64,000 nt of DNA from Rhizophagus irregularis (Eukaryota): NCBI RefSeq assembly GCF_026210795.1, contig NC_089431.1:2108001-2172000 (forward strand), written 5' to 3'. Positions 14,597 to 64,000 of this stretch are shown here, in pieces (position 1 is the stretch's first letter; each line of letters begins with the position of its first letter). The notes beneath the pieces were generated by a model that was not told where the DNA came from, made no database searches, and worked only from the letters and a program-made list of their open reading frames with translations. The translations under genes were made by a program, and so were the position numbers.

Positions 14597-15672
14597 CTGC
14601 TTAATTCTAATTTAACTAATTTAGTATTAAGGTTTTAATTTAAAAATTAAGCAGTATCAAGGAAAATTCTTGCGAATTTTTCTTAATACTGCTTAATTCT
14701 AATTTGACTAATTTAGTATTAAGGCTTTAATTTAAAAATTAAGCAGTATCAAGGAAAATTCTTGCGAATTTTTCTTAATACTGCTTAATTCTAATTTAAC
14801 TAATTTAGTATTAAGGCTTTAATTTAAAAATTAAGCAGTATCAAGGAAAATTCTTGCGAATTTTTCTTAATACAGTCAACTCTCTTTATAGTCACACATT
14901 TGGGACTGTCCATATTTGGTGATTACAAAGAGATGTGACTATATAAAAAATTTCTTATATTTGTATATCATAATTCTGGCCAAAAATTAACATAATTTTA
15001 GCCAGAATTATACTTAAAACTTTATTGTATCGTAACTTCGCCAATATTAATCGTAGAGAGATGATCTTACCGCCATTCGATTCGTCTTGATGAGACGGTT
15101 CTAATGGTATAAAATACATCGAAATTCAATCACTAGATTAATTTCCAAAATTAAAAAAATATTAATGGTTTTTGTGTAATAACTCTGCCAATATTGATCC
15201 TAGAAAGACGATCTTACTACTATTCGATTCGTCTTGATGAGACGCATCTAATGGTATAAGATACATCGAAATCCAATCACTAGATCAATTTCCAAAATTA
15301 AAAAATATTAAATGGTTTTTAAGTAATAACTCCGTCAATATTGATCACAGAGAGATGAACTTACTACCATTCGATTCGTCTCGATGAGGCGATTCCAACG
15401 AGCTATAAATCGTCCTTTTACAATCACTAGGTACTGAGAAATCTAGCAAAATGTTAAATGGCGCAGTAAACGTAAATCAAGAAATATTATAATGCCAATG
15501 TTTAACATTTTGTTGAATAACTCGTCAGCCAGTGATCGGAAAAGGATAAAATTAACTCTCTCCCGTTCTGCTCACTTGACAATATTTACGAAAAAATAAA
15601 AAATTTTTTCGAAGTTTTTTATTACTTTTTCTTTATATTTTCTTTATTTTAGATAACTGCGACACTTTACAA

Positions 15673-17691
15673 ATGGCTAAAGATAACAAAAAGAAAGATA
15701 ACAAGTCTAACAAAGATACTACTTCTAAACGTCCTGCCTCTAGCTCTCCAACTGGCAACGTTTCTGGTCAAGGTTCCTCTATGTCTGGTCCTTCGAACAC
15801 TCCACCTTCGACCACCTCTACTAATAAACGTACCAGAATCAGTGCCGACGACTCTGTCATGGATGTTGATAAACCTCTCACGCCTCCTGGCCCTGTTGAG
15901 ACAACTTCCGTTGAGACACCTTCTCAACCTGATACCTCCTCTCTTGACGCTTCTCAACACGCACCTGCTAATAACAACGATAAAGGCAAAGGCCCTGATA
16001 TTACTCCCGCAGTTTCCTTCCCAGAACGTGCTGCCTCCCGGACGCGTCCCAAGGCTGCAGTACAATCTCAACCTACACTTTTACGCCTGGCGCTCCTAAT
16101 GACGTCGAAGATTTTTGGACTCACTTCGCTTCGAACCGCGACACGTGCGACGCGGTTGATCGACAACTTTCCTTGTTCCCCTCTTATGGTAGTCGTGCCA
16201 CGTGTAGTGGATCCAACGATTTGAAAAGGATCATCGTTCACTTCCGAAAAAAGGAAGATCTTGTCAAAGCCGTAGCTTCCCCTATGGATTCTTTGTTTAA
16301 CTTGCATTTCCATGCATATGACCCCCAGGCTATTAAAGCAGATGAACACGCGCGTACCCTGGTGGTTACCGACATCCCCCTTTTTATAACTGACGCTCTT
16401 TTGCGTGGTACCTTTTCCCGTTATGGCAATATTGTTCGCTGCCATACCCGTTTATCTAAACTTTATCGTACTGCATACATTACCTTTGAATCTACTGGTG
16501 CTTTACAGAACCTCGACTCTACCTGGGGCGTCCTTTGTGGAGGACATTGTTTGCGTATCTGCCCCGCTACTTTCTCACCTGAACAACGCGCTGAAAGACG
16601 CGCTTACGTTGCCTTACTTGCCGGTCTCCCGCGTGGTACTATAGCGGTCGATCTTGCTGAAATTGCCGATGAAATTTCCGCTAAATCTATCAATGTTCCC
16701 TTCTCTACGCGAATTCTTACAATCCCAAACCTTACGCCTATTGCCATTTTGCCTCTGAAACGGCTATGGAAAATGCTAAATCTATTTCATGTGCCCTCAA
16801 GAAAGTTGGCCTTACCTGGCATTCTCTGGATGAAGTCACCTCTCTTTGTCATCGGTGTGGTCGCCCTAATTGTAACCCTGATCGATGTGGTTCTTCATCT
16901 AGACCTAATACCCTCTCGCCATTGGCGAATCTAATGATAAATTACGTGCTTTATATAACAAGCATCTACCTCCTTCTCATCCCGCTAAACGACATAACCG
17001 TTTTGCCCGCCCCTGATAACAATAATGATGGACGCGCCCGTACAATGCTTCTCGCCATCGTTCTAAATCCAGACCTAATAACCGACAACAATCTCGTTCT
17101 CGTTCTCAACATCGACCATGGAATCGTGACAATCTTAACAACAACAATAATAATCAACGTCGTCGTATTCCTGATGCAAATGAACTTGATCACTATGCTG
17201 ATGGCATGGATGTTACATATCCTGCTCCTCCTACTGTGCTTACTGATTGGAAATCTATTGGTGTTGCTCTTGAAAAAGTAGTTGAAGATTTAGCCCTCCT
17301 TACCACACAATTTGCTACCATGAACAGCCGCATCACCAAATTGGAATCTGCTATGGCTGCTCGTGCTCCTGTTCCAGGACCTTTTGTCGCAAAACCACCT
17401 TCCTACATCCCTTCCTCTATGCAAGGATGGGATGATACAGTGAATCGAAATGATAATAATATCCTCGTTGATGTTAATTCTCCTCCTTTGCAATCAACAA
17501 GTGGTTTTTCCCCAATTCCCCATTTTGCTCCCATTCCACCTTCTAACGTTGCCCCTTCCTCTCCTATTGATATGGAACAGCGACTCTCCTCTCTTTCTGA
17601 CACTGTTGCCTCTTTGGCTGGCTCGATTAAAGAAGGAATCCAACAAAATAACCTCATCCTAGCTCGGAAACAAGGCCAGGCTAATCAATAA
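15673..17691 (+). pseudogene. LINE ORF1 (RRM-like domains, CX2CX4CX4C knuckle, coiled coil), frameshifted
   Basis: Overlapping fragments 15673-16224, 16173-16934 (RTLVVTDIPLFI...FSRYGNI), 16766-17281 (CHRCGRPNCNPDRC) and 17206-17691. Homologous to ORF1 at 43721-45373. Confidence 0.85.
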
Positions 17692-17739
17692 TTGTTGTCC
17701 TTTTTCCCCTTCTTTATTACCGTTTATCAGTGTGTAATA

Positions 17740-20700
17740 ATGATGGACAACAAAAAACATAATTTTTCTCCTCATCCCTCTCCCCTTATTAAATTTGGTC
17801 AATTGAATGTTAATGGTTTATGTTCTCCAGTTCGACAACAACATTTACTTAATTTTTTTCTTCACTCTTCCTTTGGTGCTTTATCTGTTAATGATACGCG
17901 TCTTTTCCCTTCAAATGCTAAATTTATTTTCAAAAACGAACACTCCCAACATCACTTTAAGTCCTATTGGGCTTGTTCATCTTCTTCTCGCCTTCATGAT
18001 GGTGTTGGTATTTTGTTACGTAATCCTCTTCATAAGCATGTCCAAACAATTGATCCGTGGAAAGGTCGACTTCTTAAATTAAATTTGTTTTTTCATCAAA
18101 CCAAAATCTCTATTATTTCTATATATTACCCTCCTTCTGGTTCTATTCATCGTTCTATTTATAATGATCTTATTACTAAACTCCTTTCCTGGCTTGATTA
18201 TGCCAGAAATAACAATTATTTTGTAATTATTCTTGGCGACTTTAATATTGATGAAATCGCTCATTCCCATTATTCATCTAATCATTTTAAGCTCCTTCGC
18301 TTGCTTTCTTCTCGGTTTTTTACCGATCATCAAGCTTACTCCTCTACAAATGGTCCTGATCTCACCTTCTTTCATGATAATGGATCTTCTAGACTGGATT
18401 ATATTTGGTCTTCACCTGGTTTTCCTGCACCTGGTCTTTTTTCGCAAGTGGTTACTTGCCCGGATCTCCTTGATCGTCCTTTTACAGATCACAAAGTTCT
18501 TACAACTATCTTTGACTTCAGTTCTTGCTTGGCTGTTTTGGCTAAATCTCGTCTCAAACAGAAAAAAGAAATGCGTACTATTTTTTCTTACGTTTCCACT
18601 TCAGTTGAACAATGGAATAATTTTACCACTGAAGTAGATGATTCTTTTGGAGTTTATTTAGATAGACAATATCACCCTAATTCTGATTTCTCCTTTCTTT
18701 CTCTTGATCGTATGTGGCATGCATTGAAAGCTGCCATAATTAGTGCTGCAATTGAAACTCTACCCTTTCAAAAAGTCTCCAATACACACTGACATTCATA
18801 CTCTCCTGAATTGACTAAACTTATTGCTATTAACAAATTTTTAGATCGATTTTTACATCGCCTTACTACTCGTCATTCTAATCGGCCTACTCAGATTGCG
18901 CAAATGACTGCTGCTTTGCCCTCCCATCTTGGAAATTTAGCATCCTTACTTCCTGATTATTCAGTTCCTACCTATTCTACATTCCCTGTATCTGTATTTA
19001 AATCATTTTTACGATCACAGAAGAATTTAGTTTCTGCTTTTTTATCTACTAAATTTGCCCAACACCTTACGGATTCAGTGGAATATTATACTGCACTACG
19101 TGACGAACACTTTTCGAACTCGCTTGGCACCTTTATAGATTCTGCCTTATCAGTAGAAAAACGCTCAATTGTTCTTGATCGTGTCCTGGTTGTACTGGAC
19201 TCAACTCCTACTTTACTAACGGATCCTTCGGACATTAAACAAGCAGCTATTTCTCATTTTCAATCGATTGTTTCTCCTCCGTTGGTCCGCTATTCTTCCA
19301 TCACTTCATTTCCCGCCCGATGGCAACAAGCTTACACTCCTCTTACAAATGTGTCTGCTTCATTATATGATCCTGTTTTGGCGCCTATTTCCCTACAAGA
19401 ATGGTCTGCTGTGATTTCCTCCATGCCAAATAACAAAGCTTCCGGCCCTTCAAAAATTTCTTATGAGATGATTAAACACTTGTCCGGTGAAGCCTTGGAA
19501 TTTTCTCTTTTACTTGCCAATACTTGCCTTTCTCGTGGTGATATTTCTGCTGACTGGCGTGAAGCCGTGGTTTATCCTATTTCTAAACCTCATGACTTTG
19601 ATGCTCAACTTAAGAACACTCGACCTATTACCCTTCTGGAAACAGTTCGAAAATGTGTAGTTAAGGTCGTCACGAATCGTCTTTCCAACATCCTTGCTGA
19701 TAATAAAATTCTCCAAGGTGGTAATTTTGCTGGTTTACCTGGTAGTTCTACGGATGTCCCTATTAAGATGCTGGATGCGATTATTCATCAACATAAACAT
19801 GACTCTACTGATGATCAGGAACTATGGATCGTTTCTCAAGATATCTCTAAAGCTTTCGATTCTATGGACTTAAATATGCTTAAATTAGCTTTAGATAGAT
19901 TACATATTCCTGCACTTTTAGTGCGATTTATTTTGAATCTTTTTACCCGACGAAATAATAAGATTATTACCTGTCATGGCGATACAGCTGCTTATAGAGT
20001 ACGTGTTGGTATCGATCAAGGAGAAATCATTTCCCCTCTTCTTTGGGTTATTTATCTGGATCCCTTACTTACTATTTTGAATCAAGATGAGATCCTTTTA
20101 TTTTAAATTCTTCAGCTCTTCTAAATTATTCTCCACTAGAATTTGAACAACATTCCTTACCAATTTCACATTTAACGTTTATGGATGATTCTACACTTAT
20201 TGCCTCTTCCAAGTCCGGAATAGAAGATCGTCTTTCTATTACTGCTGAATTTTATACTTTAAATAATGTTCAAGCCAATTCAGCAAAATATGTTCTTCTT
20301 TCATCTTCTTCGCCTTCTTCAAAGATTATTTTTGATCTTTTACTTTCTTCTTTAGTTTCCGATACTTCTCTCTCCCTTTCTTCTTTATCTCTTAATACTT
20401 TTTTCCGTTTCTTAGGAGTTTGGTTTTCCTTGTCTGCCTCTTCCGCTTTTGTTTTGAAACAAGCGCGCTCCATGGTCAAAGATATGGCTGCTCTTCTGGG
20501 CCCGAAGAAATTATTAGCTCAACATGTGGCCTATCTTTATAATGCTGTCCTTCTTCCGCGATTGGAATTCCGTCTTCAAACTACCCTTTTCTCTGAAAGT
20601 ACTATTCAATCAATAGTTAAACCTATGTTTTCAGTACTTCGAAGAAAAGCTGGACTTGCTGCGACTACTCCGTTGGCTTTGTTATTTCTTAAACTTCCTT

Positions 20701-23121
20701 TTTCGATTCAGAATGCTTTTTATCGATTCCTTTCTTCCCATATCGCATCTTGGCAAAAAATTTTCATTCACCCTGACTTCAAAGATTTTGCCCTCTATGC
20801 TATCTCCTATCTTCAAGGATATTTGGGTGCTGAGAGTTGCCTGACTACTATTGACTTAGAACCGTGGTCACAAGTCGTTTCTTTACGGACGCATACTTTG
20901 TTTAATTCATTATTATTTTCTTCGCGATTGAATATCACGTGGTCCCTCTCTTTCCGACCTCCGAGGCAGGACTTGCAACCAGCTTCGCCACTCCGAACCG
21001 TCTTACCGCATTCGATTTTTCAGACTGCTTGGAAACTTTGGAAAAATTTGAATCTTTTTGTCCTTGCTCAATTGGTTTCCCCTTGTGGACGATATCTTAT
21101 GAATTGGCTTGACCTTCGTTACCTTGGTATCGTTGGCCGTAAAGGACGGATTCCCACTTGGTTCAATTTTATTAAAAATAATTTTCTTTTTTCTCCTTCT
21201 TCTTCTTTATTGTTGCCTTTATATTTTATTAATTCTTCTTTTACTTTATCTTCCCCTTGTTTATTAGATCATACTGTTAAAGATTATTCCTTTTATCCTC
21301 AATGGGCTATTAATTTTAATGTCGCTACCCAAACTTTATCTGTGGGCCGTGTATGTATCACCTACAAGAAACAAGATTCTGCTATCATGTCCCATTGGCT
21401 TCCTGTATCTTCTTCCGCTGATGAACGATCTTATAATCCTTGTCCTGGATGTTCCTTTAATATCCCCGCCTTATCCAAGAAATCCGCAATTAAGCAACGC
21501 TGTAATAGCGAGAAGTGTTTTTTTAATGTAATCTTATCAGAAACCGTAGGCTATCCTACCAGAAATGCCAAAGTCTTTGCGGCCTACCTTCCGATTATTT
21601 TATCTACTTCGTGGAGTTATGCTACTTCTCTGGCTCTTGTTCATTTGTCAAAACCGTCTTTATCTACTTCTTCCACTCTCTCTTCTTCCTTAAAGGATAT
21701 GCCTGACGATGTTGTTTTACCACTTTCCGTGCAATCTCTGTATACTGATGGTTCTTTTCATGTTGCTACGGACTCTTCACCTGCTTCCATGACCTCTGCT
21801 TGGCTTGCCCTTGATGATGATGGACTTATTCTTGAATCTTCATCTTTGCAACTTTTTTCATGTCTTCCTTCAGCTTTGCGTTCTGAAATCTATGCTGTTG
21901 TATTAGGACTAAACGCTCTTTCTCGTGGCACTTCAATCTCCATTCATACTGATTGTAGTCAGCTTATCTCACTATGGAAACGCTTTGTTGATGTTCCTTT
22001 TTCACCAAAGTTGCTTCGAGAACATAATCATCTCCTTTGGCTTTCTATTCGATATCTCATTATGGATCGTGACCTTAAGGTTGATTTGATTAAAGTCCCT
22101 GCTCATGGCGATGACATCTATAATATGCAAGCGGATTCATTGGCAAAAGACGCTCATTCGCCTTCCCCACCTAATATTTCACCTTGGCATTTTGTTATGC
22201 TCCGTGCTTGTTATCATTTAATTCTTTGCCTATTGACATGAATATTCGTCATTTCCTCCGCTCTATAGCTGACGCTCGTGCTCTTTTATCTTTCTGTTCA
22301 TTGGCACGGTTTACTGCTCTTGGTTCCCTTCACTTTTTGATTGGGCTGGTATATATTTTTGCCTTTCACAAATTAAAGGTTTTGCTTCGCATAAGAATGG
22401 TCGTCCTGAATTCTGGATCTTCTGTATCAAACTCCTTTTGGATATGTTGCCTACTTTAACTACTCTTCAACAACGCAAACCTTATTTATATTCTCCCGAT
22501 TGGCTTTGTCCACAATGCAACTCAGCTCCTGAAGATTTGAATCATCTTTGAACTTGTCCTTATATTCTTCCAGATTTAAATCCGTGTTTGACACATCGTT
22601 CTGAAATTATCAAATTCAGAGATTCCTGCTTATCTTCGTTCTCATCTCTGAAACCTCTGGATATTACCTTCCAAACTGGATTCTCTGCTCTAGATTGTTG
22701 GAACTATGATACTCCTTCTTTGTCCTGTCTCTGGCTTACTCGAGGATTGTTGCCTGCGCATTTAACAGGTTTTTTAAACCAACACTTTCCTCTCTCTGTC
22801 ATATACAAGATTATTTCTCCTCTCCTTAATGACTTCCAAGTCGAATTGTATGGTGAAATTTGGCTGTGTCGGAATGTTCTTTTCCATGCTTGGGAAGAGT
22901 CGCAGGGTATCTCGGCTGCTTCTAAATTACGTGGCCCATCTATAAATTCTTCTCCTATTGTTCCTTCTCCACATACAAATAACTCTTCTTTGGCGACAGT
23001 TTCTCAGGATTCCTGGATTTCTTGGATATCCTCTTCTATAATTCAGGGTGGATCATGGATCTCACACTTGGATTTTCTGCGCCGCTTAACAGTTCAACCT
23101 CTTAGGATTTCTTTCTGGTAA
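17740..23121 (+). pseudogene. LINE ORF2 (APE endonuclease, RT, RNase H, Zn motif), disrupted
   Basis: NVNG, GDFN, RLDYIW, TDH; QDISKAFD, GIDQGEIISP, FMDD; YTDGS, RSE, HTD, KVPAH; CPQC. Stops at 18790-18792 and ~22549; frameshifts near 20090, 22180 and 22330. Confidence 0.92.
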
Positions 23122-23391
23122 CGGACTGGATTTTTGGATGTTGGATAGTTGACTCACACTGGCCTTCGGGTAAAGTTGGGGTATGCGATTCTGTAATAGT
23201 CTAGTTTTTCTTTGCTTTAATTTTATTTTAGTTTAGATTTCTTTACTTGTATGAATCGTGAAGCTACTCTTTTATTTTTATTAGTTTATTTTCTTATTTT
23301 TGTAATTTGTTCGTTTGAATTTTCGATGTTAAAATATAAATAAAAATAAAGTCATAAGACTGTTTGCAAAAGGAAAAGGATAAAATTACCA

Positions 23392-24377
23392 GGGTTGGTC
23401 ACCCTATCTCGGTGGTTAGTCACTGAGACCCTCATTAAGCCTGAGTATGGTGAGATCGCAGGTTCGATTCCTATAACCACGGAAATAAAAAGAATTTTAC
23501 TGCGGACGCTACAACCAATAGCGTGAAGGTACAGGGATTAGTGTAGTTGGACTGCATTATGGTGAATTAGTGTGTACGGTTAGGCTGCACATTTCAACTA
23601 AGGGCGGTCATGGTGTCCTTCTAACGTTCCCTATGAGGCCATTGGCATGTGCGCAGTCCTGTCCTTGAGGTCACTACTATACCTTGGGAGGGACTTCCTG
23701 TCCGGGTGGTCACTCTACGATACCGCTTGGGGCCGTAATAGCTAGATGGTCGTCCTAGATGGTAAAGCTGAGGGTGCAATGTCTTAGTGGTAGTTAGACC
23801 TTCTGTTAGGTCTTAGACCAACCAAGGTGTTCGTGCGAGAACAGGTAACGCATGGCTATGGGGTTCGGATTCCCTACTTCTTGGGTCCTGGTTGGTGATC
23901 CCTGGTGGTTGATACCCACCATAAGGGGTGATCCTGGACAGATGCCTGCTACTTCCTGTCCGAGTGGTCACTACAAAAGTATACCACTTGGGGTAAACAA
24001 CTGTACTATCGGTGCTAGGTAATCGCGGGCTGTAGTGGCCTTTGAGTGAGGCTTAGTACCAAATAAAATGGTGGTATGGAAGGGTACTAGATGGTTGATG
24101 TTACCTGTCGAAAGTCCTCCATGAAAGTAGATGCTCTCTAAAGGTCGTTAAATAAATTGAGTATCAGTATCATGCAATGGGTATAGGATGAGTAGGCGGC
24201 GTGTACTGCTTCGATCAGCCTAAATGGCCCGATGGGGGATGTCTTCTATAGTGGTGCTGTTACCTGAGGAATTAAGTACTCGGTTTAATGGTTGCCCATT
24301 GAAGATGATAGGACACAGACCCTGAACGATTAGTCTCATAAGAGGCAATGGGTGGTCTGGCCGTAAACACTTGCAAA
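23392..24377 (+). mobile_element. 986-bp non-coding SINE-like retroposon, highly structured
   Basis: GC-richer than its surroundings and ORF-free; 20-bp TSD GGAAAAGGATAAAATTACCA at 23372-23391 and 24378-24397; Pol III B-box-like GGTTCGATTCC at 23461-23471; many hairpins; ends TTGCAAA like the adjacent LINE. Confidence 0.75.
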
Positions 24378-29083: not shown

Positions 29084-29360
29084 CACTGGTCAAAAACTAG
29101 GCAAACGTGGCATAGTAGCCTTTATCTTTATTAAATTTATTCGAACTTTACAATTTACAAAAAAAAATAAAAAGAAAATATAAAAATAAAACTAACTAAA
29201 AACAAAGCTATATAGTTTCCTAAGAAAAAATAAAGTAAAAAAAATTAATCTAAAAAAAAGAAAAATCGCATTACACTAAATTTCCCCAGATCTTCCCCCT
29301 TGATATATTCCAACCAAAGTAGAAGCAACTATGCTAACAAAATAACGAATAGCGCGCCCA

Positions 29361-34988: not shown

Positions 34989-35038
34989 TAAAACACAATG
35001 ATATAAACAGTCGGAGAGTTAAAATTTGAAGAAAGAAA

Positions 35039-37152
35039 TTAATTGGAAGAAGCTGAATCAGCTTGTTCCAGGGGAGCACCACCAAGGGAGCCAATGAATT
35101 GCTTGATATGACCAGTAAGTTGGTCCAATTTACTTTCAATAGCGACACGACTATTTTTGAGATCATTAATTTCTTCTTGTGTGGAGAAGATGGGAGTAAA
35201 AGGAGGAGCATTTGGAGAAAGGTGAGAAGAAGGAGGTGATGTGTCAGGAACAATAGTGAATGTAGGCGAAGGTCGCGTTAAAATACTTTTGGGAGGCAGC
35301 GAAGATTTAGCGGAAGACAGAATATTAAGAGGAACGTGAGTTACAGGGGCATCTTCTTGCATGAGGTCCGGTTCAGGTTCATTGGGTATAGGGAGTGGAT
35401 CAAGGCCAAGGTGTGATTCAATACGAGTCATCCGTTGGTCAGCAAGTTCAAGAGCGGAGATGCGTTTGTGAAAGTTAGCAACTTCACATTGTAATTCTCG
35501 TAAAAGGTTTAGAATGTTGTTAGCATCATCGCAGAGTTAGGAGTTTGTCGGGGTAAGGGACGTGCTGTAGAACGAGAGGAGGAAGAAAAGGAGACAGATC
35601 GTTCTTTACTATTATGGCGGGCACGTTGAGAAGTATTGGGAGGGGGTTTGTTATGATTACTATTATCATTATTAGTGCGGTCATGGGAAGCGTTATTGGC
35701 TCGTCCAGAATTGGAAGCAGATCGATCTTTAGATTTGGAGCGAGATCGAGAGCGAGAACGTGCATTGGCAATATTAGAATTGGAGCGAGGTTGATTAACA
35801 TTGAATCGTTCTTTAAGTTTTGCAACAGGGTCGCGAGTGCGGCTTCTACCTCTGGTTTGTTTGAGTGGGCAAAAATTAGGAGCACAACCTAGTTTGCCAC
35901 ATCTGTGACAAAGTTTATTAGTATTATCGGAAGAGGACCAGAAAAGCACTTTGCCTTGGAAGCTAACAGTCTGTTCCATAGCAGCATCCATGGTTTCTTG
36001 GGAGTTGAAGGTGACATAGGCCCATCTTTTGGGTTTGTAGGAATTTAAAGAAAGAGGAACATTGACAGCTTTTGCACCAAGATCGCGTGTAAGAGGAGCC
36101 AAGTTGATATCCTTAACATTGGGAGGAAGTTGAGTGAGGGTGGCAACGTATTGACGGCGCGCAGCTTTTTGATCCACAGTATAGAAACATGGAGTAATTC
36201 GGAGACAAGTGGAGAAACAGTAAACAGCCCATTGGTCGGTAAAACGAGCAATTGAATCGGCGTGATCATACACAATACGGGCTTGCTGGACTTTAGCATT
36301 AGGCCTGGAGAAGAGGCGACAAGAGGTAATATTACCAAATTTTTTGAAATAGGCCATGAGGTTGTCCTTTTTGATAAAGAAAGGGATATCGGTAACTTGG
36401 ATAGCCCGGAGATCTTCATTGGATCGGAGTTGGCGAGGGTCATGGGCATGAAAAATCAAGTCAGGGAACTCAGGATGAGAGGAACCAACGCACAGAGCGC
36501 GTGCTTCAGCGGTATGGAAGTGGATAACGAGGCGTTTAGCCTCACCAGAACCTGTCATACGAGCTTTTCCAGTGAATGACTCGTACGTTTCCAAGAAAAG
36601 GTTATTCACAGCCTCAATAAGGGCTTTATTGGTAGGGAATTTCTTGAGCGATTCAGGGGCAGCATTCGGCGCAGCCGCAGCCTGAAAATCATCTCTGGTT
36701 ATGGCAAAGGTCACCACTGGATCTGGGGTTTGATCGCCATCAGGAGCACCATTAGTATCCAAATTGGGCGACGTGTTAGGGGGTAGTTGCAAGTCTTTGT
36801 TTGAAGGTGCATGCATGGACGCGTCCACATTTCCAGAAGACGCGACGTGACTGGACGCAGTTGGCGCAGCAGATTTTTTCGGGGAGGAGGCCAAAGTATT
36901 TTCGCCAGAGATATTTTGTTGAGGAGAAAAGGAAGGTCCATCTACTCCAACGTCAGCCGTCTGGTCATCGGCAACGTAGTCTTCTTCCATAGAATTTTCG
37001 GTAATCGTACGATTACGTTTCTGCTGGATAGTGTTTTCACCATCGGAGCTTGAATTATCGGAGTTGTTATTATTTTTTCGTTCTTGATGGGAAGCTTTCC
37101 TACTGTTAGGGTTATGACTTCCACGGCCTCTCTTGGCATAGTTACCAGATAT
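35039..37152 (-). pseudogene. LINE ORF1 of copy A, disrupted
   Basis: The start codon reads ATA (37152-37150) where copy B has ATG. A 10-bp deletion near 35530 (copy B has AGGAGATAAT) shifts the frame. Confidence 0.88.
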
Positions 37153-37572
37153 AGTAGAGGGCTTTGAGTTGGGAATATATAAATATAAAATTTTTATTAG
37201 TAGCTTGTATTATTTTTTAAAAATAATAAAAAATTATTTTCGTCGGAATTTTCGTTTTTGAAAAATTCAGGAGAGAGTTACTGGTCAAAAACCACTACTA
37301 CTGGTCAAAAACTAGGCAAACGTGGCATAGTAGCCTTTATCTTTATTAAATTTATTCGAACTTTACAATTTACAAAAAAAATAAAAAGAAAATATAAAAA
37401 TAAAACTAACTAAAAACAAAGCTATATAGTCTCCTAAGAAAAAATAAAGTAAAAAATTAATCTAAAAAAAAGAAAAAACGCATTACACTAAATTTCCCCA
37501 GATCTTCCCACTTGATATATTCCAACCAAAGTAGAAGCAACTATGCTAACAAAATAACGAATAGCGCGCCCA

Positions 37573-40500
37573 CTATAGAAATCGACACTCCATCCTGCAA
37601 AAGCTGTTATTAAGTAGCACCGTTAGACGACCCATAAAACCCGAAAAGTGATTAAACCAAGGCAAACCATATTTCATTGAGTTCTTCAACCAATCGGTTC
37701 CGGAGTCACGTGAATCGTGTAGGGTCGGAGGTGGTAGAGATGAGTAAGGTATGTACGTTGACAATGGCAAATTAGAAGGCTTCGGAGTAGTTTTCAACTT
37801 ATAAGTAATATTCATCGCGTTTTCCCATCTACTTTTCTCATAAGAACGCGGATTCCAAATTCGTTTTCTGAATTTTTGGACAAAATTATTATGAATAGCA
37901 GCGATAACCTTAATCGCAGAGATTCTTGGAATAGACAAATCGACTAAGATGTCAATAAAAAGTGTAGGTAAACAACCACGGACAAGGGCGTAAGAGGACC
38001 AATTGGTAGAAGAAAAGGACCAGCATGAAAGAGAAGTGAGTTTAGCAATAAAGGGAGTAGGATCAATATCAGCCAATTTTCCAGCTTCTTGAATTTTAGA
38101 AATCAAATGATTTTGATAAGATTGGAGAATTTGTTGCATAGGTAGACGACGTTTTTTGCACATAAAAAGGTGCATTAGGTCTTCCATGCGATCGATACAA
38201 GAACGGCAAGTTAATTCGTCCATGTATAAGTCTGGTCGAGTCCGCTTAAGCTTTTCCAATGTGGGAAAGTCGTCCAAGAAAAGTTTGAATTTAAAGGTTA
38301 AGTGTCTTGAAGCATGCTCAAGAGTAAAAGATGCATCATGAGAAGGCTTGAAATTCAAGGTAAACCAAGTAAGTTCCCAGTCGACAATGTAATCTATATT
38401 AGATAATAATAAAGAAATAAAGTGAAATCGCGTTAAATTTAACAAATCACGCATTAACTGCGTTTGATAATACTGTTTAAGAAGGTGTCGTGGATTAGAT
38501 TCACAAACGGTGTCATTGTCGTAAGTCAATACGAAATCATGGGCAGAGGCAAGGTCCATTCCAGAAATCAAAATACTGGATGATGCGGTATGGGCAGTAT
38601 TGGCCAGGGAGTCAGCAAAATCGTTCAAATAATTGCCAGAATGAGCTTTAACTTTAACAGGAAGAACTGTCAAATTCTTGGTAAGGATAGTTCGTTCAAT
38701 AATGGCCCAAAGCTCAAAATTTGTTGTTTTGTAGTAAAGACGGCTGTTTGAGTAGACATAGGAAGAGCAACTTCGAAGGCCATCAATGGCAGTTTGCGAG
38801 TCAGTATAAATAGTAACTTCTGAGTCGCGAGGAGAAATGGTTAAAACTGCGTAAATAGCGGCAGCTTCAGCACGAGAAGAAGAAGGATTATCTCGAATGA
38901 TGCCATGTGCATAAGTAGCAATGGAATTAGGAAAACCAGCATCAGGTACGATTTGCATCCAAGACCAGCCCATAGAAACATTAGGAGTGCCTAGATTAAT
39001 AAGAGACCCATCAGTGAAAAAGATATAACGTGAGTCTGAAGACACAACCAACGGCGAATTTGCGAAAACAGCAGCAGCTGAGGATTCAATAGTGATGAGA
39101 GGAGCGGAAACTTCAACAATATCATCAGGAGGAGAGTCAAAATCAAAATCCAATCGACTGTAATAAAGACGGACACCATCTTCGATATCAGCCCAGGTAA
39201 AAGGAGAGGATACTGCAGAAGTATTACGTCTAATGCGCTCATTGATGGTGGGCAGAATAAGCGAATGTTGTAGAGAAACCGTAGGCGTACAAAGGGTTAA
39301 ATCAGCATTCCGTTTTTTGGAAGGAGGCAAAGGAATATGAGCAGCACAACCAGGGCAAGGAGAGAGTCTAATAAGATCACCAGGCGAAGATTCACAATCA
39401 GGAGAGACCCAGTGAACAATAGAACAAGTACCACGACTTGCTTGAACTAAAAGTTGTTTGCCAAAGATGGGAGAACCGTAGTCGTCTAACGTGACAATCC
39501 AATTTTTCGTAGTGGTAGGAGAGGACAGGCAAGGAGTCAATTCATAAAATGAAGAGTCAATCGTAGGCGTAGTAATGAACTGGCTCAGCAAACGATTGTT
39601 GGTGTCAGGAATGGTAGTAGCTTGCTGGATATCTTTATACCAATAAGGGATACAGCCAGGGCCACGTCGTCCAACCAAATTGTCATAGTAGGCTTTCCAA
39701 GAAATTAAATGAGTCCCTTGGAGAGTAACAAGCTGAGATAGATAAAACAAATGCCGTTTTCGCAAAATAGGGAAATAGGCTTTAAACGCTTTAGGTGTCA
39801 TGCATTCAAATAAGGGAACGCGTCCATCCATCAAAGTCAGGTTCGGAAGCTTCGAAAGTTGAGTATGAAGCAAACGAAAAGGAGTAGAGGATAAGAGAGC
39901 AATAGTGCATGCGATATAATCTTTCTTAAAAGAAAAAAGAGAAGACCATATAGACCAATCCTTAATTAAAAGGGGAGAAATAGGAATTAAAAAATTAAAT
40001 TGAATCAAACTCAATCTATAAATAAAAAGAGATTGAATAAAAGAAAAGGAAGAATTAGCCATTAAAAATAAATTAGTAATATGACATTGTCGTTGATGAG
40101 CAAATAAATTTATCAAGCCCAAGGCTTGAGATAAAAATAAAATGGGATTTGGTAAAGAGCGAGAAAAATTTGCTTTGTGCTTTACAACAGATCGTATACT
40201 TCTCGTTATTAGGTGGCAGTCAGATTCAGACAAGTGAGTAACTTGCATCCGGTATTCAAGTTTCGGTATAAGGACAGCATTATGTAAATAAACAACTTGT
40301 TTGGATGAGAGCTTTGCAGGGCGGATGGTTGCAGCGAAGGAGCAGCATTCACGTTTGAGTTGTTTCTTGACAAAATTCCGGGAGCTTTTAATGTTAAACC
40401 AAACACCTAAAAAACGAAAAGAAGTTGTCATAGAAATTGGGGTAATGGTAATGGAAGGAACACTATTTAATGAGGATAAATCTAAATTAAAAGTAATAGG

Positions 40501-43200
40501 AGATAAAGTGGAATTCGAAGTCAAAGGCAACGAATTAGTAATTAACACATATTTGTTATGATTGGCAGAAGTGTTATTAATTTGATAGAATTCTTCTGTA
40601 ATGGATAACATAAATTCCATGCCAGTCTTCGACGAGGAAATAAGAGTAGAGTCATCCATAAATACTAAATTATTAATCTTCAAATCGGAAGAAGGATTGG
40701 GAGAATCAATTAAGGATGGTGTAGAAAGAACATAAGGGTCCATCATTTCATGCTTCAAGACAGTAAGTAAGGGATCAATATAAATAACCCATAAGAGAGG
40801 AGAAATAACTTCGCCTTGGTCAATACCAATGCGAACCCTATAAGCAGGCGTGGATCCATGAGCAGTGAAAACGCTATTAATGCGTTTTGTGAAAAGGGAA
40901 AGAATAAACTTAATAGCAGAAGCTGGAAGACGTATTCGTTCTAAAGCGAAACGTAACATTGTCAAATCAACCGAGTCAAAAGCTTTAGAAATGTCTTGAG
41001 AGAGAATCCAAAGTGGGTTTTTGTTGACATCAGCATCATGGATAATAGATTCTAGAGTAATAATAGGGTCACGGCAAGAACCACCAGGAAGACCAGCGAA
41101 GTTACCACCTTTAAGAACATCATGTGTAGCCATAATAGTAGAAAGGCGATTATAAAAGAGTTTGACAAGAGATTTTCTAATCACTTCAAGTAAAGTAATA
41201 GGACGAGTATTTTTCAATTGACATTTCCATTCGTGAGGTTTGGGAATGGGAAAAACCATTGCCTGTCGCCATAAGTCAGGAATATCAGCTTTGGAAAGGC
41301 AAGCTTGAATTAAAATAAGGAGTAGAGCCGAGGAACAAGATCCAAGGTGTTTGAGCATTTCATAAGTGATCATGGAAGGACCTGAGGCTTTACCGTTAGG
41401 AGTAGAAGAAACGGTAGTTAACCATTCGTCAAGGGTAGGGGGATTCATCAAAGAATCATAGATGGAGGAGGGCACATCATCCATAGGTTGGTAAACAGAA
41501 GACCATCTATCAGGTAATGTATCTACAGATACAGGAGGAGTGGATTTTATAGGTACAAAGTTTTGGAAATGGTTAACAACAGCATCGTCTATATCCTTGG
41601 GAGCAGTTAATAACTGAGGGTGAGTGGGATGATCAACAAAGACACGATCCAAAGTGATACGGCGGCGGGTGCGAGAAAGCGCTGAATCAATGAAAGAGGA
41701 AAGGTCAGTTTCAAAATTATTGTTCCTATCGTCCAAATGAGCACGAATGGAGGAATCTTGGAATTCTTTTTCTTGAAGTAGATGGAATCCCCGTAAGGAT
41801 TTTGAAATATCGGATAAATCATCAAGAAGTGACTTGAAATCATCTTGTCGACATGATGAGAGAGAAGAGGGCAAAGTAGGAACGAAAGTAAATACTTTCT
41901 TATATAATTGCAAAATGTTTTGAAGTCTGATTAAATGAATAGACCACTTATGTTCATGAGCGGCAGAATAAGTTAAAGGATATTTGCGCAATAAACGTAT
42001 TGAATGCATAAGGCGATTTAAAAACCGATAATGTTGGGTTAAAATTTCCAGATCTTTAGGAACCTTAGGAGTATAATTATTGCCAACAGTGGAAGAAGGT
42101 AGTGTAGCGTTGGCAGCTTTAAGAATTCGTGATTGGAGATATTCGCACATTTGATTGATATGCCAGGAGGAAAAGGTTGAAGGTGAGACGTCACATAAAG
42201 CATCAGCTTTATCAGCAAATTCCGTCCATTGAATTTCAGTTACAGAATCAAATTTGAAGACGCGACGGGTTCGGCGCTTAAGTTGTCGAGCGCGAGCCAA
42301 TTTGGTAGAGGCAAAAAGTAAAGACATATCATAGTATGTTATGACGGGGTTATGATCAGATGTGCAAACATCTTGAGCATTAAAAATGCAAGCAGTAAGA
42401 GCAAATCCTTTGAGAAGAGGGCAGGACCATACATAATCAACTCGAGTAATGTGGTCATTGTGATGAAAGGTACCTAAGGAGTCGGAAAGATTAATAGGAG
42501 TATAGTCTTCATATCCGTGAGAGAGGAGATGAAAAAATAATCGGTGAATTTGTTTTGAAGCAACTTGAGGTTGATTGAAGTAAATAGGGTAATATTTGTC
42601 TAAATGCATATTAAAATCGCCACAAACAGCATGGTAAAAGCCAGCATGTTTAGTAAGGGTAAGTTGTTGAATGAGCAAATCAATAGTATCAGTGCGCAGA
42701 ACACTTTCAGCAGGGGGAGGGATATAAATAACAAATATACGCAATTTAATATTGCCTTTGAAATATAAATCAACAGAAAGTAACCGTGAAGAATAGGATT
42801 TAAAATCTTGAACATGTGAAGCAAGGGAATTTTCTATAAAAAGAGAAACACCACCAGAAGAGAGAATTTGTTTAGAAGTATCCAAATTAGAAGAGAACAC
42901 AGTATAATTAGAAATACGTTTGGATAAAAACTTCATTTGTTTAGGGTGAAGATGGGTATCCACGATACCACCAAAGGAAATATGTTTTAAGGAAAAGAAA
43001 GTAGAAATTTCTTCTAATTTAGTCTGACCATACATTTTAAGGCCATTAACATTAAAGGAAGAAATATTAAATGAATTGGGGATAGGGGAAGTGTTACTGG
43101 AAGAGGAAAATAACGATTCATGCGAAAAAATTTCAGTAACATTGTCAGGGTTGGGAGGGTTTCGTACAAAGGTATCATAATTAAAATTATTGTCCGACAT
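37573..43200 (-). CDS. Intact LINE ORF2, 1875 aa (APE-RT-RNase H-Zn)
   Basis: Same motifs as 29361-34988, differing at a small number of residues. Confidence 0.96.
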   Translation of the reverse strand: MSDNNFNYDTFVRNPPNPDNVTEIFSHESLFSSSSNTSPIPNSFNISSFNVNGLKMYGQTKLEEISTFFSLKHISFGGIVDTHLHPKQMKFLSKRISNYTVFSSNLDTSKQILSSGGVSLFIENSLASHVQDFKSYSSRLLSVDLYFKGNIKLRIFVIYIPPPAESVLRTDTIDLLIQQLTLTKHAGFYHAVCGDFNMHLDKYYPIYFNQPQVASKQIHRLFFHLLSHGYEDYTPINLSDSLGTFHHNDHITRVDYVWSCPLLKGFALTACIFNAQDVCTSDHNPVITYYDMSLLFASTKLARARQLKRRTRRVFKFDSVTEIQWTEFADKADALCDVSPSTFSSWHINQMCEYLQSRILKAANATLPSSTVGNNYTPKVPKDLEILTQHYRFLNRLMHSIRLLRKYPLTYSAAHEHKWSIHLIRLQNILQLYKKVFTFVPTLPSSLSSCRQDDFKSLLDDLSDISKSLRGFHLLQEKEFQDSSIRAHLDDRNNNFETDLSSFIDSALSRTRRRITLDRVFVDHPTHPQLLTAPKDIDDAVVNHFQNFVPIKSTPPVSVDTLPDRWSSVYQPMDDVPSSIYDSLMNPPTLDEWLTTVSSTPNGKASGPSMITYEMLKHLGSCSSALLLILIQACLSKADIPDLWRQAMVFPIPKPHEWKCQLKNTRPITLLEVIRKSLVKLFYNRLSTIMATHDVLKGGNFAGLPGGSCRDPIITLESIIHDADVNKNPLWILSQDISKAFDSVDLTMLRFALERIRLPASAIKFILSLFTKRINSVFTAHGSTPAYRVRIGIDQGEVISPLLWVIYIDPLLTVLKHEMMDPYVLSTPSLIDSPNPSSDLKINNLVFMDDSTLISSSKTGMEFMLSITEEFYQINNTSANHNKYVLITNSLPLTSNSTLSPITFNLDLSSLNSVPSITITPISMTTSFRFLGVWFNIKSSRNFVKKQLKRECCSFAATIRPAKLSSKQVVYLHNAVLIPKLEYRMQVTHLSESDCHLITRSIRSVVKHKANFSRSLPNPILFLSQALGLINLFAHQRQCHITNLFLMANSSFSFIQSLFIYRLSLIQFNFLIPISPLLIKDWSIWSSLFSFKKDYIACTIALLSSTPFRLLHTQLSKLPNLTLMDGRVPLFECMTPKAFKAYFPILRKRHLFYLSQLVTLQGTHLISWKAYYDNLVGRRGPGCIPYWYKDIQQATTIPDTNNRLLSQFITTPTIDSSFYELTPCLSSPTTTKNWIVTLDDYGSPIFGKQLLVQASRGTCSIVHWVSPDCESSPGDLIRLSPCPGCAAHIPLPPSKKRNADLTLCTPTVSLQHSLILPTINERIRRNTSAVSSPFTWADIEDGVRLYYSRLDFDFDSPPDDIVEVSAPLITIESSAAAVFANSPLVVSSDSRYIFFTDGSLINLGTPNVSMGWSWMQIVPDAGFPNSIATYAHGIIRDNPSSSRAEAAAIYAVLTISPRDSEVTIYTDSQTAIDGLRSCSSYVYSNSRLYYKTTNFELWAIIERTILTKNLTVLPVKVKAHSGNYLNDFADSLANTAHTASSSILISGMDLASAHDFVLTYDNDTVCESNPRHLLKQYYQTQLMRDLLNLTRFHFISLLLSNIDYIVDWELTWFTLNFKPSHDASFTLEHASRHLTFKFKLFLDDFPTLEKLKRTRPDLYMDELTCRSCIDRMEDLMHLFMCKKRRLPMQQILQSYQNHLISKIQEAGKLADIDPTPFIAKLTSLSCWSFSSTNWSSYALVRGCLPTLFIDILVDLSIPRISAIKVIAAIHNNFVQKFRKRIWNPRSYEKSRWENAMNITYKLKTTPKPSNLPLSTYIPYSSLPPPTLHDSRDSGTDWLKNSMKYGLPWFNHFSGFMGRLTVLLNNSFCRMECRFL

Positions 43201-43250
43201 TAAAACACAATGATATAAACAGTCGGGGAGTTAAAATTTGAAGAAAGAAA

Positions 43251-45373
43251 TTAATTGGAAGAAGCCGAATCAGCTTGTTCCAGGGGAGCGCCACCAAGGG
43301 AGCCAATGAATTGCTTGATATGACCAGTAAGTTGGTCCAATTTACTTTCAATAGCGACACGACTATTTTTGAGATCATTAATTTCTTCTTGTGTGGAGGA
43401 GATGGGAGTAAAAGGAGGAGCATTTGGAGAAAGGTGAGAAGAAGGAGGTGATGTGTCAGGAACAACAGTGAATGTAGGCGAAGGTCGCATTAAAATACTT
43501 TTGGGAGGCAGCGAAGATTTAGCGGAAGACAGAATATTAAGAGGAACATGAGTTACAGGGGCATCTTCTTGCATGAGGTCCGGTTCAGGTTCATCGGGTA
43601 TAGGGAGTGGATCAAGGCCAAGGTGTGATTCAATACGAGTCATCCGTTGGTCAGCAAGTTCAAGAGCGGAGATGCGTTTGTGAAAGTTAGCAACTTCACA
43701 TTGTAATTCTCGTAAAAGGTTTAGAATGTTGTTAGCATCATCAGGAGATAATGCAGAGTTAGGAGTTTGTCGGGGTAAGGGACGTGCTGTAGAACGAGAG
43801 GAGGAGGAAAGGAGACAGATCGTTCTTTACTATTATGGCGGGCACGTTGAGAAGTATTGGGAGGGGGTTTGTTATGATTACTATTAACATCATTAGTGCG
43901 GTCATGGGAAGCGTTATTGGCTCGTCCAGAATTGGAAGCAGATCGATCTTTAGATTTGGAGCGAGATCGAGAGCGAGAGCGTGCATTGGCAATATTAGAA
44001 TTGGAGCGAGGTTGATTAACATTGAATCGTTCTTTGAGTTTTGCAACAGGGTCGCGAGTGCGGCTTCTACCTCTGGTTTGTTTGAGTGGGCAAAAATTAG
44101 GAGCACAACCTAGTTTGCCACATCTGTGACAAAGTTTATTAGTATTATCGGGGGAGGACCAGAAAAGCACTTTGCCTTGGAAGCTAACAGTCTGTTCCAT
44201 AGCAGCATCCATGGTTTCTTGGGAGTTGAAGGTGACATAGGCCCATCTTTTGGGTTTGTAGGAATTTAAAGAAAGAGGAACATTGACAGCTTTTGCACCA
44301 AGATCGCGTGTAAGAGGAGCCAAGTTGATATCCTTAACATTGGGAGGAAGTTGAGTGAGGGTGGCAACGTATTGACGGCGCGCAGCCTTTTGATCCACAG
44401 TATAGAAACATGGAGTAATTCGGAGACAGGTGGAGAAACAGTAAACAGCCCATTGGTCGGTAAAACGAGCAATTGAATCGGCGTGATCATACACAATACG
44501 GGCTTGCTGGACTTTAGCATTAGGCCTGGAGAAGAGGCGACAAGAGGTAATATTACCAAATTTTTTGAAATAGGCCATGAGGTTGTCCTTTTTGATAAAG
44601 AAAGGGATATCGGTAACTTGGATAGCCCGGAGATCTTCATTGGATCGGAGTTGGCGAGGGTCATGGGCATGAAAAATCAAGTCAGGGAACTCAGGATGAG
44701 AGGAACCAACGCACAGTTCGCGTGCTTCAGCGGTATGGAAGTGGATAACGAGGCGTTTAGCCTCACCAGAACCTGTCATACGAGCTTTTCCAGTGAATGA
44801 CTCGTACGTTTCTAAGAAAAGGTTATTCACAGCCTCAATAAGGGCTTTATTGGTAGGGAATTTCTTGAGTGATTCAGGGGCAGCATTCGGCGCAGCCGCA
44901 GCCTGAAAATCATCTCTGGTTATGGCAAAGGTCACCACTGGATCTGGGGTTTGATCGCCATCAGGAGCACCACTAGTATCCAAATTGGGCGACGCGTTAG
45001 GGGGTTGTTGCAAGTCTTTGTTTGAAGGTGCATGCATGGACGCGTCCACATTTCCAGAAGACGCGACGTGACTGGGCGCAGTTGGCGCAGCAGATTTTTT
45101 CAGGGAGGAGGCCAAAGTATTTTCGCCAGAGATATTTTGTTGAGGAGAAGAGGAAGGTCCATCTACTCCAACGTCAGCCGTCTGGTCATCGGCAACGTAG
45201 TCTTCTTCCATAGAATTTTCGGTAATCGTACGATTACGTTTCTGCTGGATAGTGTTTTCACCATCGGAGCTTGAATTATCGGAGTTGTTATTATTTTTTT
45301 GTTCTTGACGGGAAGCTTTCCTACTGTTAGGGTTATGACTTCCACGGCCTCTCTTGGCATAGTTACCAGACAT
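43251..45373 (-). CDS. LINE ORF1 (~707 aa consensus; RRM-like domains, CX2CX4CX4C knuckle, RS-rich tract, coiled coil) with a single 1-bp frameshift near 43810
   Basis: ORFs 43721-45373 and 43251-43643 fuse into one frame (…PNSALSPDDANNILNLLRELQ…MTRIESH) if the base present in copy A is restored. The indel could be a sequencing error. Confidence 0.85.
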
Positions 45374-46530
45374 AGTAGAGGGCTTTGAGTTGGGAATATA
45401 TAAAATATAAAATATTTATTAGTAGCTAGTATTATTTTTTTAAAAATAATAAAAATTATTTTCGTCGAAAATTTTCGTTATTGAAAAATTCAGGAGAGAG
45501 TTACTGGTCAAAAACTAATATATTAGGTAGCAGATATGTATCAGATATGTACCTGATATGTGTAGTATTAATGCTGAAAATCGGGTACCTGATATGTGTA
45601 AGATATGTGTAAATATATATATCGTCTATATATCATTTACATATCATATACATATCAGTACCTGATATGTATATGATATATATATTTACACATATCTTAC
45701 ACATATCAGGTACCCGATTTTCAGCATTAATACTACACATATCAGGTACATATCTGATTAGTTTTTGACCAGTGATACTAGGAACACAACATGATGATAA
45801 AAAATTTTTTGATTTTTGCTCACTGGCCTTGGAAGCTAAGATTGACACTAATTTTTCCAAAATATCAAAACAAATATTTGGATTCTCAGAGTCAAAAAAC
45901 ATTTTATTTTTGGCATCACTTTTGGATTCCTTCATCATGCACTTTAAGGAACTAATTTGGTTGCCTAGATGTAATACTACTAATGCATGGGAAAAGGCTA
46001 AAAATATTGGAAAAAAGACAAATTAAATGAATCTGAAAATATGGATCGTTATTTTAAATCCCCTCATCAACAGATCAAGCAATTAAAACAGAATAAACAA
46101 CAATCAAAGAAGAATAATATAACAAATTCACAGGAAGATCAAATGGTAGAGTTTAGTGATACATCATTGGAATTGGATTCAGTACAGCTTAAAAACTTAA
46201 AAAATGAAAATCTCATATTATCAAAATGCTATATATAATTGATTTAGCAACAGTATAATTAAACTTAAATTGGAGTTATACATAAATTTACCAAATTTGA
46301 AAGGAAAAAGGGAGGGAAAAAAAAAATAATAATAATAATAATATTTATAATAATAACAACAATTTCTATAATATAATCAATAGACATAATATTAATTATT
46401 TTTATAATCAATAGATACAACACTAATTATTTTTTATTCTATATTTATTCTTATCCATATTTTGATGATTGCATCCTACTGGGTGGATATAGCTTATGAT
46501 AATTTGTTTGTATGGTATATAAACTACATA

Positions 46531-63900: not shown

Positions 63901-64000
63901 CTGTGTTGGGAATTGGCAGGTCGTGCAAAATGATTATGACGTTTAGCAGGATGAGATGGAGGTAAGTGTTTGTTATATAATTCACGCAATTTATCATTGC

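Follow-up and report, generated by a model that had tools for sequence, protein, structure and literature searches.

How do two diverged families of long interspersed nuclear elements (LINEs) come to sit at exact positions within unrelated DNA transposons of one fungal genome? The question is raised by a 64,000-nt stretch of Rhizophagus irregularis DNA (positions 2,108,001-2,172,000 of contig NC_089431.1, assembly GCF_026210795.1), which we call the window and whose own positions serve for all coordinates below. It is AT-rich, with a GC content of about 25-28% between elements, and dense in nested repeats, among them two copies each of LINE families that we designate A and B. A preliminary description of this DNA had placed the two families on unrelated targets, both inside repeats derived from DNA transposons, and our analysis bears this out. 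We conclude that A and B probably belong to a single clade of LINEs with an apurinic/apyrimidinic (APE)-type endonuclease, each inserting at a fixed sequence in a multicopy DNA transposon and each likely doing so through a nick by its own endonuclease followed by target-primed reverse transcription. Both sites have been hit repeatedly and independently, as read from the copies in the window together with contigs assembled from public reads (Logan contigs).

Insertion sites in host transposons

LINE A1 (15554-23367, plus strand) runs from AACTCTCTCCCG to AGTCATAAGACTGTTTGC; it is full length and decayed, with its two open reading frames (ORFs) broken into at least eight pieces. It splits a non-autonomous element of about 1 kb, the left part of which lies at 14873-15553 (plus strand) and the right part, ending ...GGAGTTGACTG, at 24398-24673 (plus strand). 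The host carries terminal inverted repeats beginning CAGTCAACTC(T/C), three 147-bp subterminal repeats, and a TA duplication (14871-14872 and 24674-24675). It reads as a Tc1/mariner-like transposon from its ends and the TA duplication rather than from a transposase. The host in turn interrupts a tandem repeat of 92-bp units, and intact units next to it show the empty site ttcttaaTActgctta. A1 entered the last of the three subterminal repeats, after GATC, and is flanked by a 16-bp duplication of GGAAAAGGATAAAATT (5' copy at 15538-15553, 3' copy at 23372-23387, plus strand), with four extra A residues (23368-23371) between the LINE and the 3' copy.

The same site was used again elsewhere in the window. 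A second copy of the host's right part (54302-54597, minus strand), 98% identical to 24371-24675, carries the target GGAAAAGGATAAAACT at 54582-54597. Beside it stands LINE A2 (54601-64000, minus strand), which has its GTTTGC end at 54601, followed by ACA, and extends past the window edge. An unrelated observation is that A2 itself holds a hAT-type DNA transposon with DUF659 and hAT dimerisation domains, at about 57762-60968. The bodies of A1 and A2 are 81-85% identical and their host flanks (305 bp) 98% identical; transversions number 76 in 2327 positions of the body versus 2 in 305 of the flank, making them about five times as frequent in the body, and transitions are raised too. Because the bodies are far more diverged than the flanks, we read A1 and A2 as two subfamilies that entered two near-identical hosts at the same base.

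A third event at this site involved a different kind of element. Directly beyond A1 lies a 986-bp non-coding retroposon (23392-24377, plus strand; 48% GC) that ends in CACTTGC and then AAA. It is bounded by a 20-bp duplication of GGAAAAGGATAAAATTACCA (23372-23391 and 24378-24397), the first copy of which overlaps the 3' duplication of A1. Its left boundary is identical to that of A1 and the duplication length differs (20 bp vs 16 bp). There was no second copy in the window or in the metagenome loci that we fetched. ARAGORN reported no tRNA gene, and Rfam returned 0 matches up to E = 10 on 23380-24380; a B-box-like GGTTCGATTCC is the only feature visible in it that resembles an RNA polymerase III (pol III) promoter. 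We considered and rejected the label of short interspersed nuclear element (SINE): a SINE head derives from tRNA, 7SL, 5S or small nuclear RNA and holds an internal pol III promoter, and since no such head was found we call the element a SINE-like non-coding retroposon.

Family B consists of two full-length copies arranged head to tail on the minus strand, B2 at 37316-45502 and B1 at 29101-37279. They occupy a palindromic miniature inverted-repeat transposable element (MITE) of about 270 bp with CACTGGTCAAAAACTA ends, the body of which lies at 45503-45774 (minus strand) and which is flanked by a TAT duplication at 45775-45777 and 29081-29083. The 15-bp target, T, is TAGTTTTTGACCAGT, which makes up the last 16 bases of this CACTG-ended MITE minus the outermost one and so stops one base before its tip. 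T is duplicated at 45503-45517, where it is occupied, at 37300-37314 and at 29085-29099; the last of these lies in the terminal-repeat end of the MITE (29084-29099, minus strand, ...TAGTTTTTGACCAGTG), which forms the 3' copy of T for B1. The opposite terminal repeat has an identical T (45759-45773, plus strand) with no insertion in it. Where the two copies meet (37280-37315, minus strand), the sequence consists of an extra C, a full T, the filler AGTAGTG, a 13-nt partial T (37280-37292) and the start of B1, and thus differs, with its 1.9 target copies and filler, from the unit of a clean tandem duplication. B1 and B2 are 98.4% identical, with 131 differences over 8269 aligned positions. The target duplications of A1 and B had not been part of the preliminary description.

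Further B junctions were read in Logan contigs from four coded runs (numbered with X). Ten rows of 3' junctions and three loose ends at 5' junctions are considered here; 62 further rows exist. A contig from X13 joins B position 29930 to target base 45503 via 7 filler bases, and so records a 5'-truncated copy at the same nucleotide; a contig from X7 holds only the last 35 nt of B, adjoining a variant target. All three of the listed 5' loose ends (two from X8, one from X7) enter T-like and then MITE-like sequence, and two of them show a different MITE variant. Among the ten listed 3' rows, four (7 contigs) keep T over its whole 15 nt and differ from each other beyond it, with an agreement of 0.59-0.73 there where more than one contig was pooled, which is what different MITE insertion loci would give. 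The A site has likewise been struck by A1, A2 and the 986-bp retroposon at one nucleotide, and the B site by B1, B2, truncated copies and copies on variant MITEs, a coincidence that we record in qualitative terms. Duplications of 15, 16 and 20 bp, together with truncated B copies joined to the target, are the signature of target-primed reverse transcription.

Shared termini and protein architecture

The two families share their first bases. The 10-mer AACTCTCTCC occurs exactly three times in the window, at 15554 (plus strand), 37279 (minus) and 45502 (minus), and each time it is the start of a full-length LINE; its expected count is 0.07, and none of 100 shuffled sequences reached three. A common start at these three positions, all in full-length copies, had been claimed beforehand and is upheld. 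Family A begins AACTCTCTCCCG and family B AACTCTCTCCTG, and beyond the first 12 nt their 5' untranslated regions cannot be aligned.

At the other end, A1 closes with ...AAAGTCATAAGACTGTTTGC (23367) followed by AAAA, A2 with ...AAAGTCAAAAGACTGTTTGC (54601) followed by ACA, and both B1 and B2 with ...AAAGGCTACTATGCCACGTTTGC (29101 and 37316) followed by C. A poly(A) tail is absent from all four ends, in agreement with the earlier claim that neither family has a long one. Each end is instead made of a 3-4 bp stem, GTTTGC and 1-4 extra bases. This order of hairpin, hexamer and short extension had been proposed as a terminal signature, and as an arrangement it stands at all four ends; as a thermodynamic signal we rejected the hairpin, whose z scores against shuffled sequence were -0.06 to -0.27 in A and B and -0.40 to +0.72 in relatives. 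Because their stability is no better than that of shuffled sequence, only the position of the stems counts as evidence. GTTTGC is likewise a common hexamer, notable only for its place at the very end. An AATAAA precedes the end of the element by 17 nt in A and by 26 nt in B; in L038, one of the metagenome relatives described below, it precedes the poly(A) by 28 nt. Searching the whole window against Rfam at E <= 1 gave 75 sub-threshold matches, none at a LINE end and no ribozyme. The 3'-end patterns of A and B each had one exact match in viral contigs, lying within an unrelated, apparently coding stretch, and we dismissed both as chance.

The proteins of the two families are homologous and distant, as previously noted. 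By tblastn, ORF2 of B is 37% identical to A over residues 36-818, 30% over 807-1540 and 28% over 1605-1803. In B2, ORF2 (37573-43200, 1875 aa) encodes, in order, an APE-type endonuclease, a reverse transcriptase (RT), an RNase H and a Cys/His motif; ORF2 of B1 (29361-34988, 1875 aa) is intact as well. The RT domain (PF00078) matches at 6.8e-21 in B and 2.6e-11 in A, identifying both as non-LTR reverse transcriptases, and the sequence matches in PDB were to L1 ORF2p and the R2 RT (1e-16 to 1e-15); neither the PDB sequence search nor the ESM Atlas was informative on the clade of A and B. At the N terminus, the endonuclease of A scores above the Pfam cut-off (PF03372, 33.4 bits, cut-off 24.5) and that of B below it (PF14529, 19 bits, cut-off 27.4), and both families have the motifs GDFN, (R/S)xD and (S/T)DH. 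In each of them aspartate replaces the metal-binding glutamate (SVNDTRL at about 17900 in A, GIVDTHL at 42900-43050 in B); the 21 aligned relatives covering this residue all have glutamate, as does the relative L001. RNase H (PF00075) follows the RT at residues 1391-1536 of B (7.8e-11) and is found in A as well (9.4e-07), as in elements of the I group.

ORF1 of B2 (43721-45373) encodes an RNA recognition motif (RRM_1, 2.8e-09) and a zinc knuckle, CHRCGKLGCAPNFC, which recurs as CKHCGSPNHQLKDC in L001, placing it with ORF1 type I. Both B copies of this gene are damaged: B2 has a 1-nt indel, and ORF1 of B1 (35509-36990) has lost its start ATG and is 10 nt shorter than that of B2. Apart from this, 130-aa ORFs on the minus strand at 43251-43643 and 35039-35431 gave a marginal match to PAM2, a motif that binds poly(A)-binding protein (21 bits, cut-off 20). 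We rejected the idea of a separate middle gene: because the ORF1 lesions differ between the copies and the region is continuous in the 785-aa ORF1 of L001, this ORF is probably the frameshifted coiled-coil C terminus of ORF1. A motif for poly(A)-binding protein would, if real, be a curious possession for a tail-less LINE.

Which clade do these features point to? RNase H is listed for the I group (which includes R1 and Tad1), plant L1, Proto1 and Dualen in the relevant part of one survey (PMC4640811), and ORF1 type I, in which an RRM lies directly upstream of a CCHC knuckle, is described for the I, Jockey, R1, Tad1, plant L1 and L2 clades in a section of another (PMC4120745). The order of domains and the type of ORF1 thus suggest the I group, within which A and B are most plausibly Tad1-like. 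Among database proteins, ORF2 of B matches R. irregularis proteins at 98% identity, their 90% cluster comprising 113 sequences; the weaker matches are to R. irregularis and R. clarus, and everything more remote is from metagenomes.

Relatives, their ends and their targets

An ORF2 alignment, scanned against metagenome contigs of JGI and NCBI, yielded 80 related loci. For an RT tree we removed 11 of the 69 loci with sufficient RT sequence, these being near-identical to others, and 8 of 24 database proteins, leaving 77 rows, of which 58 are metagenome loci, 16 are database proteins and 3 come from the window. With three distant proteins as the outgroup, the remaining rows were Rhizophagus and metagenome relatives, without named reference LINEs. 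Support values are SH-aLRT only, a quick method, and many rows have an odd composition. B with its Rhizophagus relatives, A, L001/L003/L062, L009 and P0109 form an 18-row clade (SH-aLRT 98), the sister group of which comprises L004/L011, L005, L007/L008, L012 and P0110.

The 5' start reaches well beyond this clade. L001 begins AACTCTCTCCTG, identical to B, and AACTCT(C/T)T(C/T)C opens L005/L006, L032, L034 and the family G3 (L013/L014/L016), with a looser AACTCAATC in L008; GCTGATC or a close variant follows directly in L005/L006, L034 and G3. Across 12 aligned starts, AACT and one C are invariant and the 20 upstream columns are unconserved. Counted by family, 12 have some 5' region: seven show the motif at the presumed start, L008 the looser form, and the G4 family and L022 its downstream part only, while in L072 and L076 the start could not be fixed. 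In G3 the 5' flanks are of three kinds and the poly(A) has at least 19-29 residues; the family branches outside a 42-row group that makes up part of the RT tree. Because the start also occurs in this poly(A)-tailed, non-specific family, we regard it as an old feature of the whole group, unlinked to targeting. The proposal of one clade with conserved cis signals thus holds for the RT clade, and for the 5' motif it has to be widened to elements that are not site-specific.

The 3' ends follow the tree more closely. Poly(A) tails were found in G3, L071, L072, L073, L077, L021, L044, L038, L046, L055 and L065, and were not seen in A, B, L002, L005/L006, L008, L032 or G4 (L019/L023/L024). We count 12 lineages with poly(A) and 9 without. 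Every tail-less lineage falls within the 42-row part of the tree, and of the tailed ones L065 alone does. It had been said beforehand that poly(A) tails and random insertion sites in most relatives would count against the proposal; this is partly the case, in that the more distant relatives with a readable 3' end are tailed. The 3' hexamer GTTTGC is not shared more widely: among the ends read, it is limited to A and B, the nearest forms being GTCTG in L002 and TTTTGC in L005 and L008.

Some tail-less metagenome lineages have informative surroundings. Copies of G4 (L019/L020/L023/L024) and of L022, which is 68% identical to G4 in nucleotides, lie antisense in a protein-kinase ORF, exactly at the kinase DLG (DFG-motif) codons and with a 12-bp duplication, ATCCTAAATCAC. 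The 3' flank of L019 (6328-6516) encodes ...HCDFHHGNIL...KLSISDLGLC and the 5' flank of L020 (918-1157) CDLGLCKPIQ...GILPFVASEVL...SDIYSFSMIMWE; together the two flanks restore one continuous kinase domain around ATCCTAAATCAC. L005 (5300-5400), L006 (6340-6440), L008 (1-100 and 7780-7840) and L032 (380-446) hold head-to-tail LINE arrays without poly(A), with a T/C-rich spacer of about 29 nt between copies in L005, L006 and L008. The L008 array adjoins ORFs that match Transposase_21 (CACTA/EnSpm), a fragment of which is encoded in its 3' flank. The sequence TGTTACATTT(G/A)AC is shared by L001, next to its 5' end, and L002, next to its 3' end, but its distance from the LINE is not the same in the two, and their target could not be fixed.

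Several other features were seen along the way. Fragments of a third LINE lineage lie in the window at 8596-10010 and 27415-28624, their RT and RNase H being nearest to the poly(A)-tailed L071-L073. The contig of L072 continues past the poly(A) of the LINE (9150-9381) with what we take to be a primate Alu repeat, and may be a chimeric or contaminated assembly. Tandem arrays occupy 4500-5760, 550-1460, 11136-12176 and 51850-53030 of the window, with periods of about 50, 81, 185 and 120 bp among them; GC-rich hairpins in the 50-bp array (GCCGGAAC...GTTCCGGC) attract many sub-threshold Rfam matches.

Mechanism, alternatives and known systems

Exact junctions, duplications, truncated copies and the reuse of one base together fit target-primed reverse transcription with a sequence-specific first nick. 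That the endonuclease chooses the site, and was retargeted between the families, we infer from the sequences. Under this model the element's endonuclease would make two staggered nicks 15-20 bp apart. Since AATAAA sits 17-28 nt before the end of the element or its poly(A), the RNA would be cleaved and polyadenylated normally, ending 17-26 nt after AATAAA in A and B. In tail-less lineages reverse transcription would begin at the last templated bases, GTTTGC, and not in the tail, leaving only 1-4 extra bases; the A-rich extras at the A site (AAAA, ACA and AAA) would fit a start within the first bases of the tail. AACTCT(C/T)T(C/T)C may mark the transcription start of an internal promoter, in which case full-length copies would bring their promoter with them. 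By inserting into transposons, the LINEs would leave host genes intact.

Would the same pattern arise without a site-specific endonuclease? The LINEs might have landed once each by chance and then been multiplied with their host transposon or MITE, or by duplication of the region. Both targets are indeed mobile and multicopy, the B copies are in tandem and 98.4% identical, and the two A hosts are inverted copies less than 40 kb apart. We nevertheless consider this history very improbable, given that the A bodies are only 81-85% identical between flanks of 98%, with transversions raised too; that a different, non-coding retroposon used the same nick with another duplication length; that 5'-truncated B copies meet the target at the same nucleotide and B ends lie on variant MITEs; and that 1.9 target copies and filler at the B junction make no clean repeat unit. 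Nor do we give much credence to a general preference for transposon-rich, AT-rich DNA with termini shared by coincidence, which we rate as scarcely credible. The window is a dense transposon nest, with a hAT element, tandem repeats and other LINE fragments, as that account would have it; yet the junction nucleotides are identical in three A-site events and several B-site events, AACTCTCTCC marks three LINE starts and nothing else in the window against an expectation of 0.07, and the same start recurs in metagenome relatives.

A less remote alternative places the choice in the RNA: with a loose nick, read-through or upstream-initiated transcripts carrying target sequence would anneal to the target and so set the point of insertion, as described for R1 and R2. 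Co-transcription of the target can strengthen target-specific integration, according to the portion of PMC4494074 that deals with it. The 5' junction of B1, where a full target and filler are followed by 13 nt of target fused to the element's start, is what an RNA begun in the upstream target would leave. On the other side, the left (bottom-strand) nick falls at the same base in A1, A2 and an unrelated retroposon, and the extras before the duplication (AAAA, ACA, AAA and C) are not target sequence. We think it unlikely that RNA guides the choice, although such guidance and a specific endonuclease are compatible. Judging from the piece of target joined to the start of B1, some template RNAs may have started upstream of the LINE, and a contribution from pairing between RNA and target is possible.

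Several observations weigh against insertion by a site-specific endonuclease as we have framed it. Some B-type 3' ends in the public contigs have no target next to them: three of the ten listed 3' rows (5 contigs) lack T and leave the reference 1-3 nt after GTTTGC, and the T-less flank TGATAAGGACTGATGACC is found in both X13 and X2. One further row keeps only 10 nt of T, two diverge 3-4 nt inside the LINE end, and, by a rough measure, contigs cover T to a summed depth only about 25-53% as great as at the last bases of the LINE. The C after GTTTGC, which is kept where the flank differs, may belong to the element. Since full-T and T-less 3' junctions both occur, B would seem to prefer T strongly and not exclusively; alternatively, subfamilies with the same 3' end have other targets. 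To these must be added that the 3' hairpins of both families are thermodynamically indistinct from shuffled sequence, and that current activity of these copies is doubtful because ORF1 is frameshifted in both B copies and both A copies are decayed.

With site-specific insertion as the preferred explanation, the closest parallels can be drawn. In the passages of PMC4494074 on Tx1 elements, Tx1L lies in the non-autonomous piggyBac element Tx1D of Xenopus, and the crocodilian Tx1-Mar and its partner SINEU lie in Mariner-N4_AMi. Like these, A and B are APE-type LINEs fixed inside non-autonomous DNA transposons, with different targets in related families and a short non-autonomous retroposon on the LINE's target (SINEU there, the 986-bp element here). 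Unlike them, ours are fungal, Tx1 being an animal clade in that account (PMC4494074). A and B also carry RNase H after the RT, and Tx1 is not among the RNase H-bearing clades as listed in PMC4640811, which argues against membership of A and B in Tx1.

R1, a clade of the I group that includes R1, TRAS, SART and others, is named as one of the three groups with most target-specific non-LTR elements in the pertinent part of PMC4640811. It shares with A and B the APE-type endonuclease and, according to the sections cited above, RNase H (PMC4640811) and ORF1 type I (PMC4120745). A further likeness is precise insertion at multicopy targets, with switches of target between sister lineages. R1-clade elements use rRNA genes, telomeric repeats and microsatellites of arthropods; A and B, in contrast, occupy DNA transposons in a fungus, and relatives of theirs a family of kinase genes. 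Eel UnaL2 and UnaSINE1, a stringent-type LINE/SINE pair, recognise a 3' stem-loop instead of poly(A). A and B resemble that pair in having no long poly(A), a conserved 3' terminus with a small stem-loop and a non-autonomous partner, and differ from it in that the stem is 3-4 bp and statistically indistinct and that the 986-bp element ends in CACTTGC rather than GTTTGC, sharing the 3' tail only in part. Tad1 elements, the fungal clade of the I group, are not known for fixed targets. A and B have in common with them the fungal host and, in the surveys as far as they are cited here, RNase H (PMC4640811) and ORF1 type I (PMC4120745).

The strategy itself is known, Tx1 and R1 being the closest precedents, and the Rhizophagus families would be a fungal variant of it rather than elements of a new kind. 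Our literature search, with subscription journals and Repbase Reports outside its range, found no target-specific Tad1-like or Glomeromycota LINE, and an article that lists Rhizophagus LINE superfamilies has 0 occurrences of 'site-specific' in its text (PMC11075540). Nearly all known target-specific LINEs fall in three groups, in the overview that PMC4640811 gives. We tentatively suggest, as a proposition with somewhat less than even prospects, that Glomeromycota hold a fourth target-specific non-LTR radiation beside the early-branched elements with a restriction-like endonuclease (RLE), Tx1 and R1. It would be RNase H-bearing and Tad1-like, would have lost poly(A), and would have made at least four fixed-target switches among close relatives, the multicopy sequences involved being a Tc1/mariner-like element, the terminal repeat of a CACTG-ended MITE, a CACTA transposase gene and, in an expanded kinase family, the codons of the DFG motif. 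If true, this would be a natural collection of endonucleases that are close kin and yet each specific for another 15-bp sequence.

For programmable insertion of DNA from an RNA template, the main models that nature offers are target-specific LINEs, and fungal sister families with shared RNA end signals and unrelated 15-16 bp sites would give matched pairs for finding the endonuclease or linker residues that read DNA. For the annotation of mycorrhizal genomes, nests of LINEs in transposons and of LINEs in kinase genes would otherwise be taken for random decay or pseudogenes. As parasites of parasites, these elements would also show how a LINE can persist in a genome about half of which is repeats.

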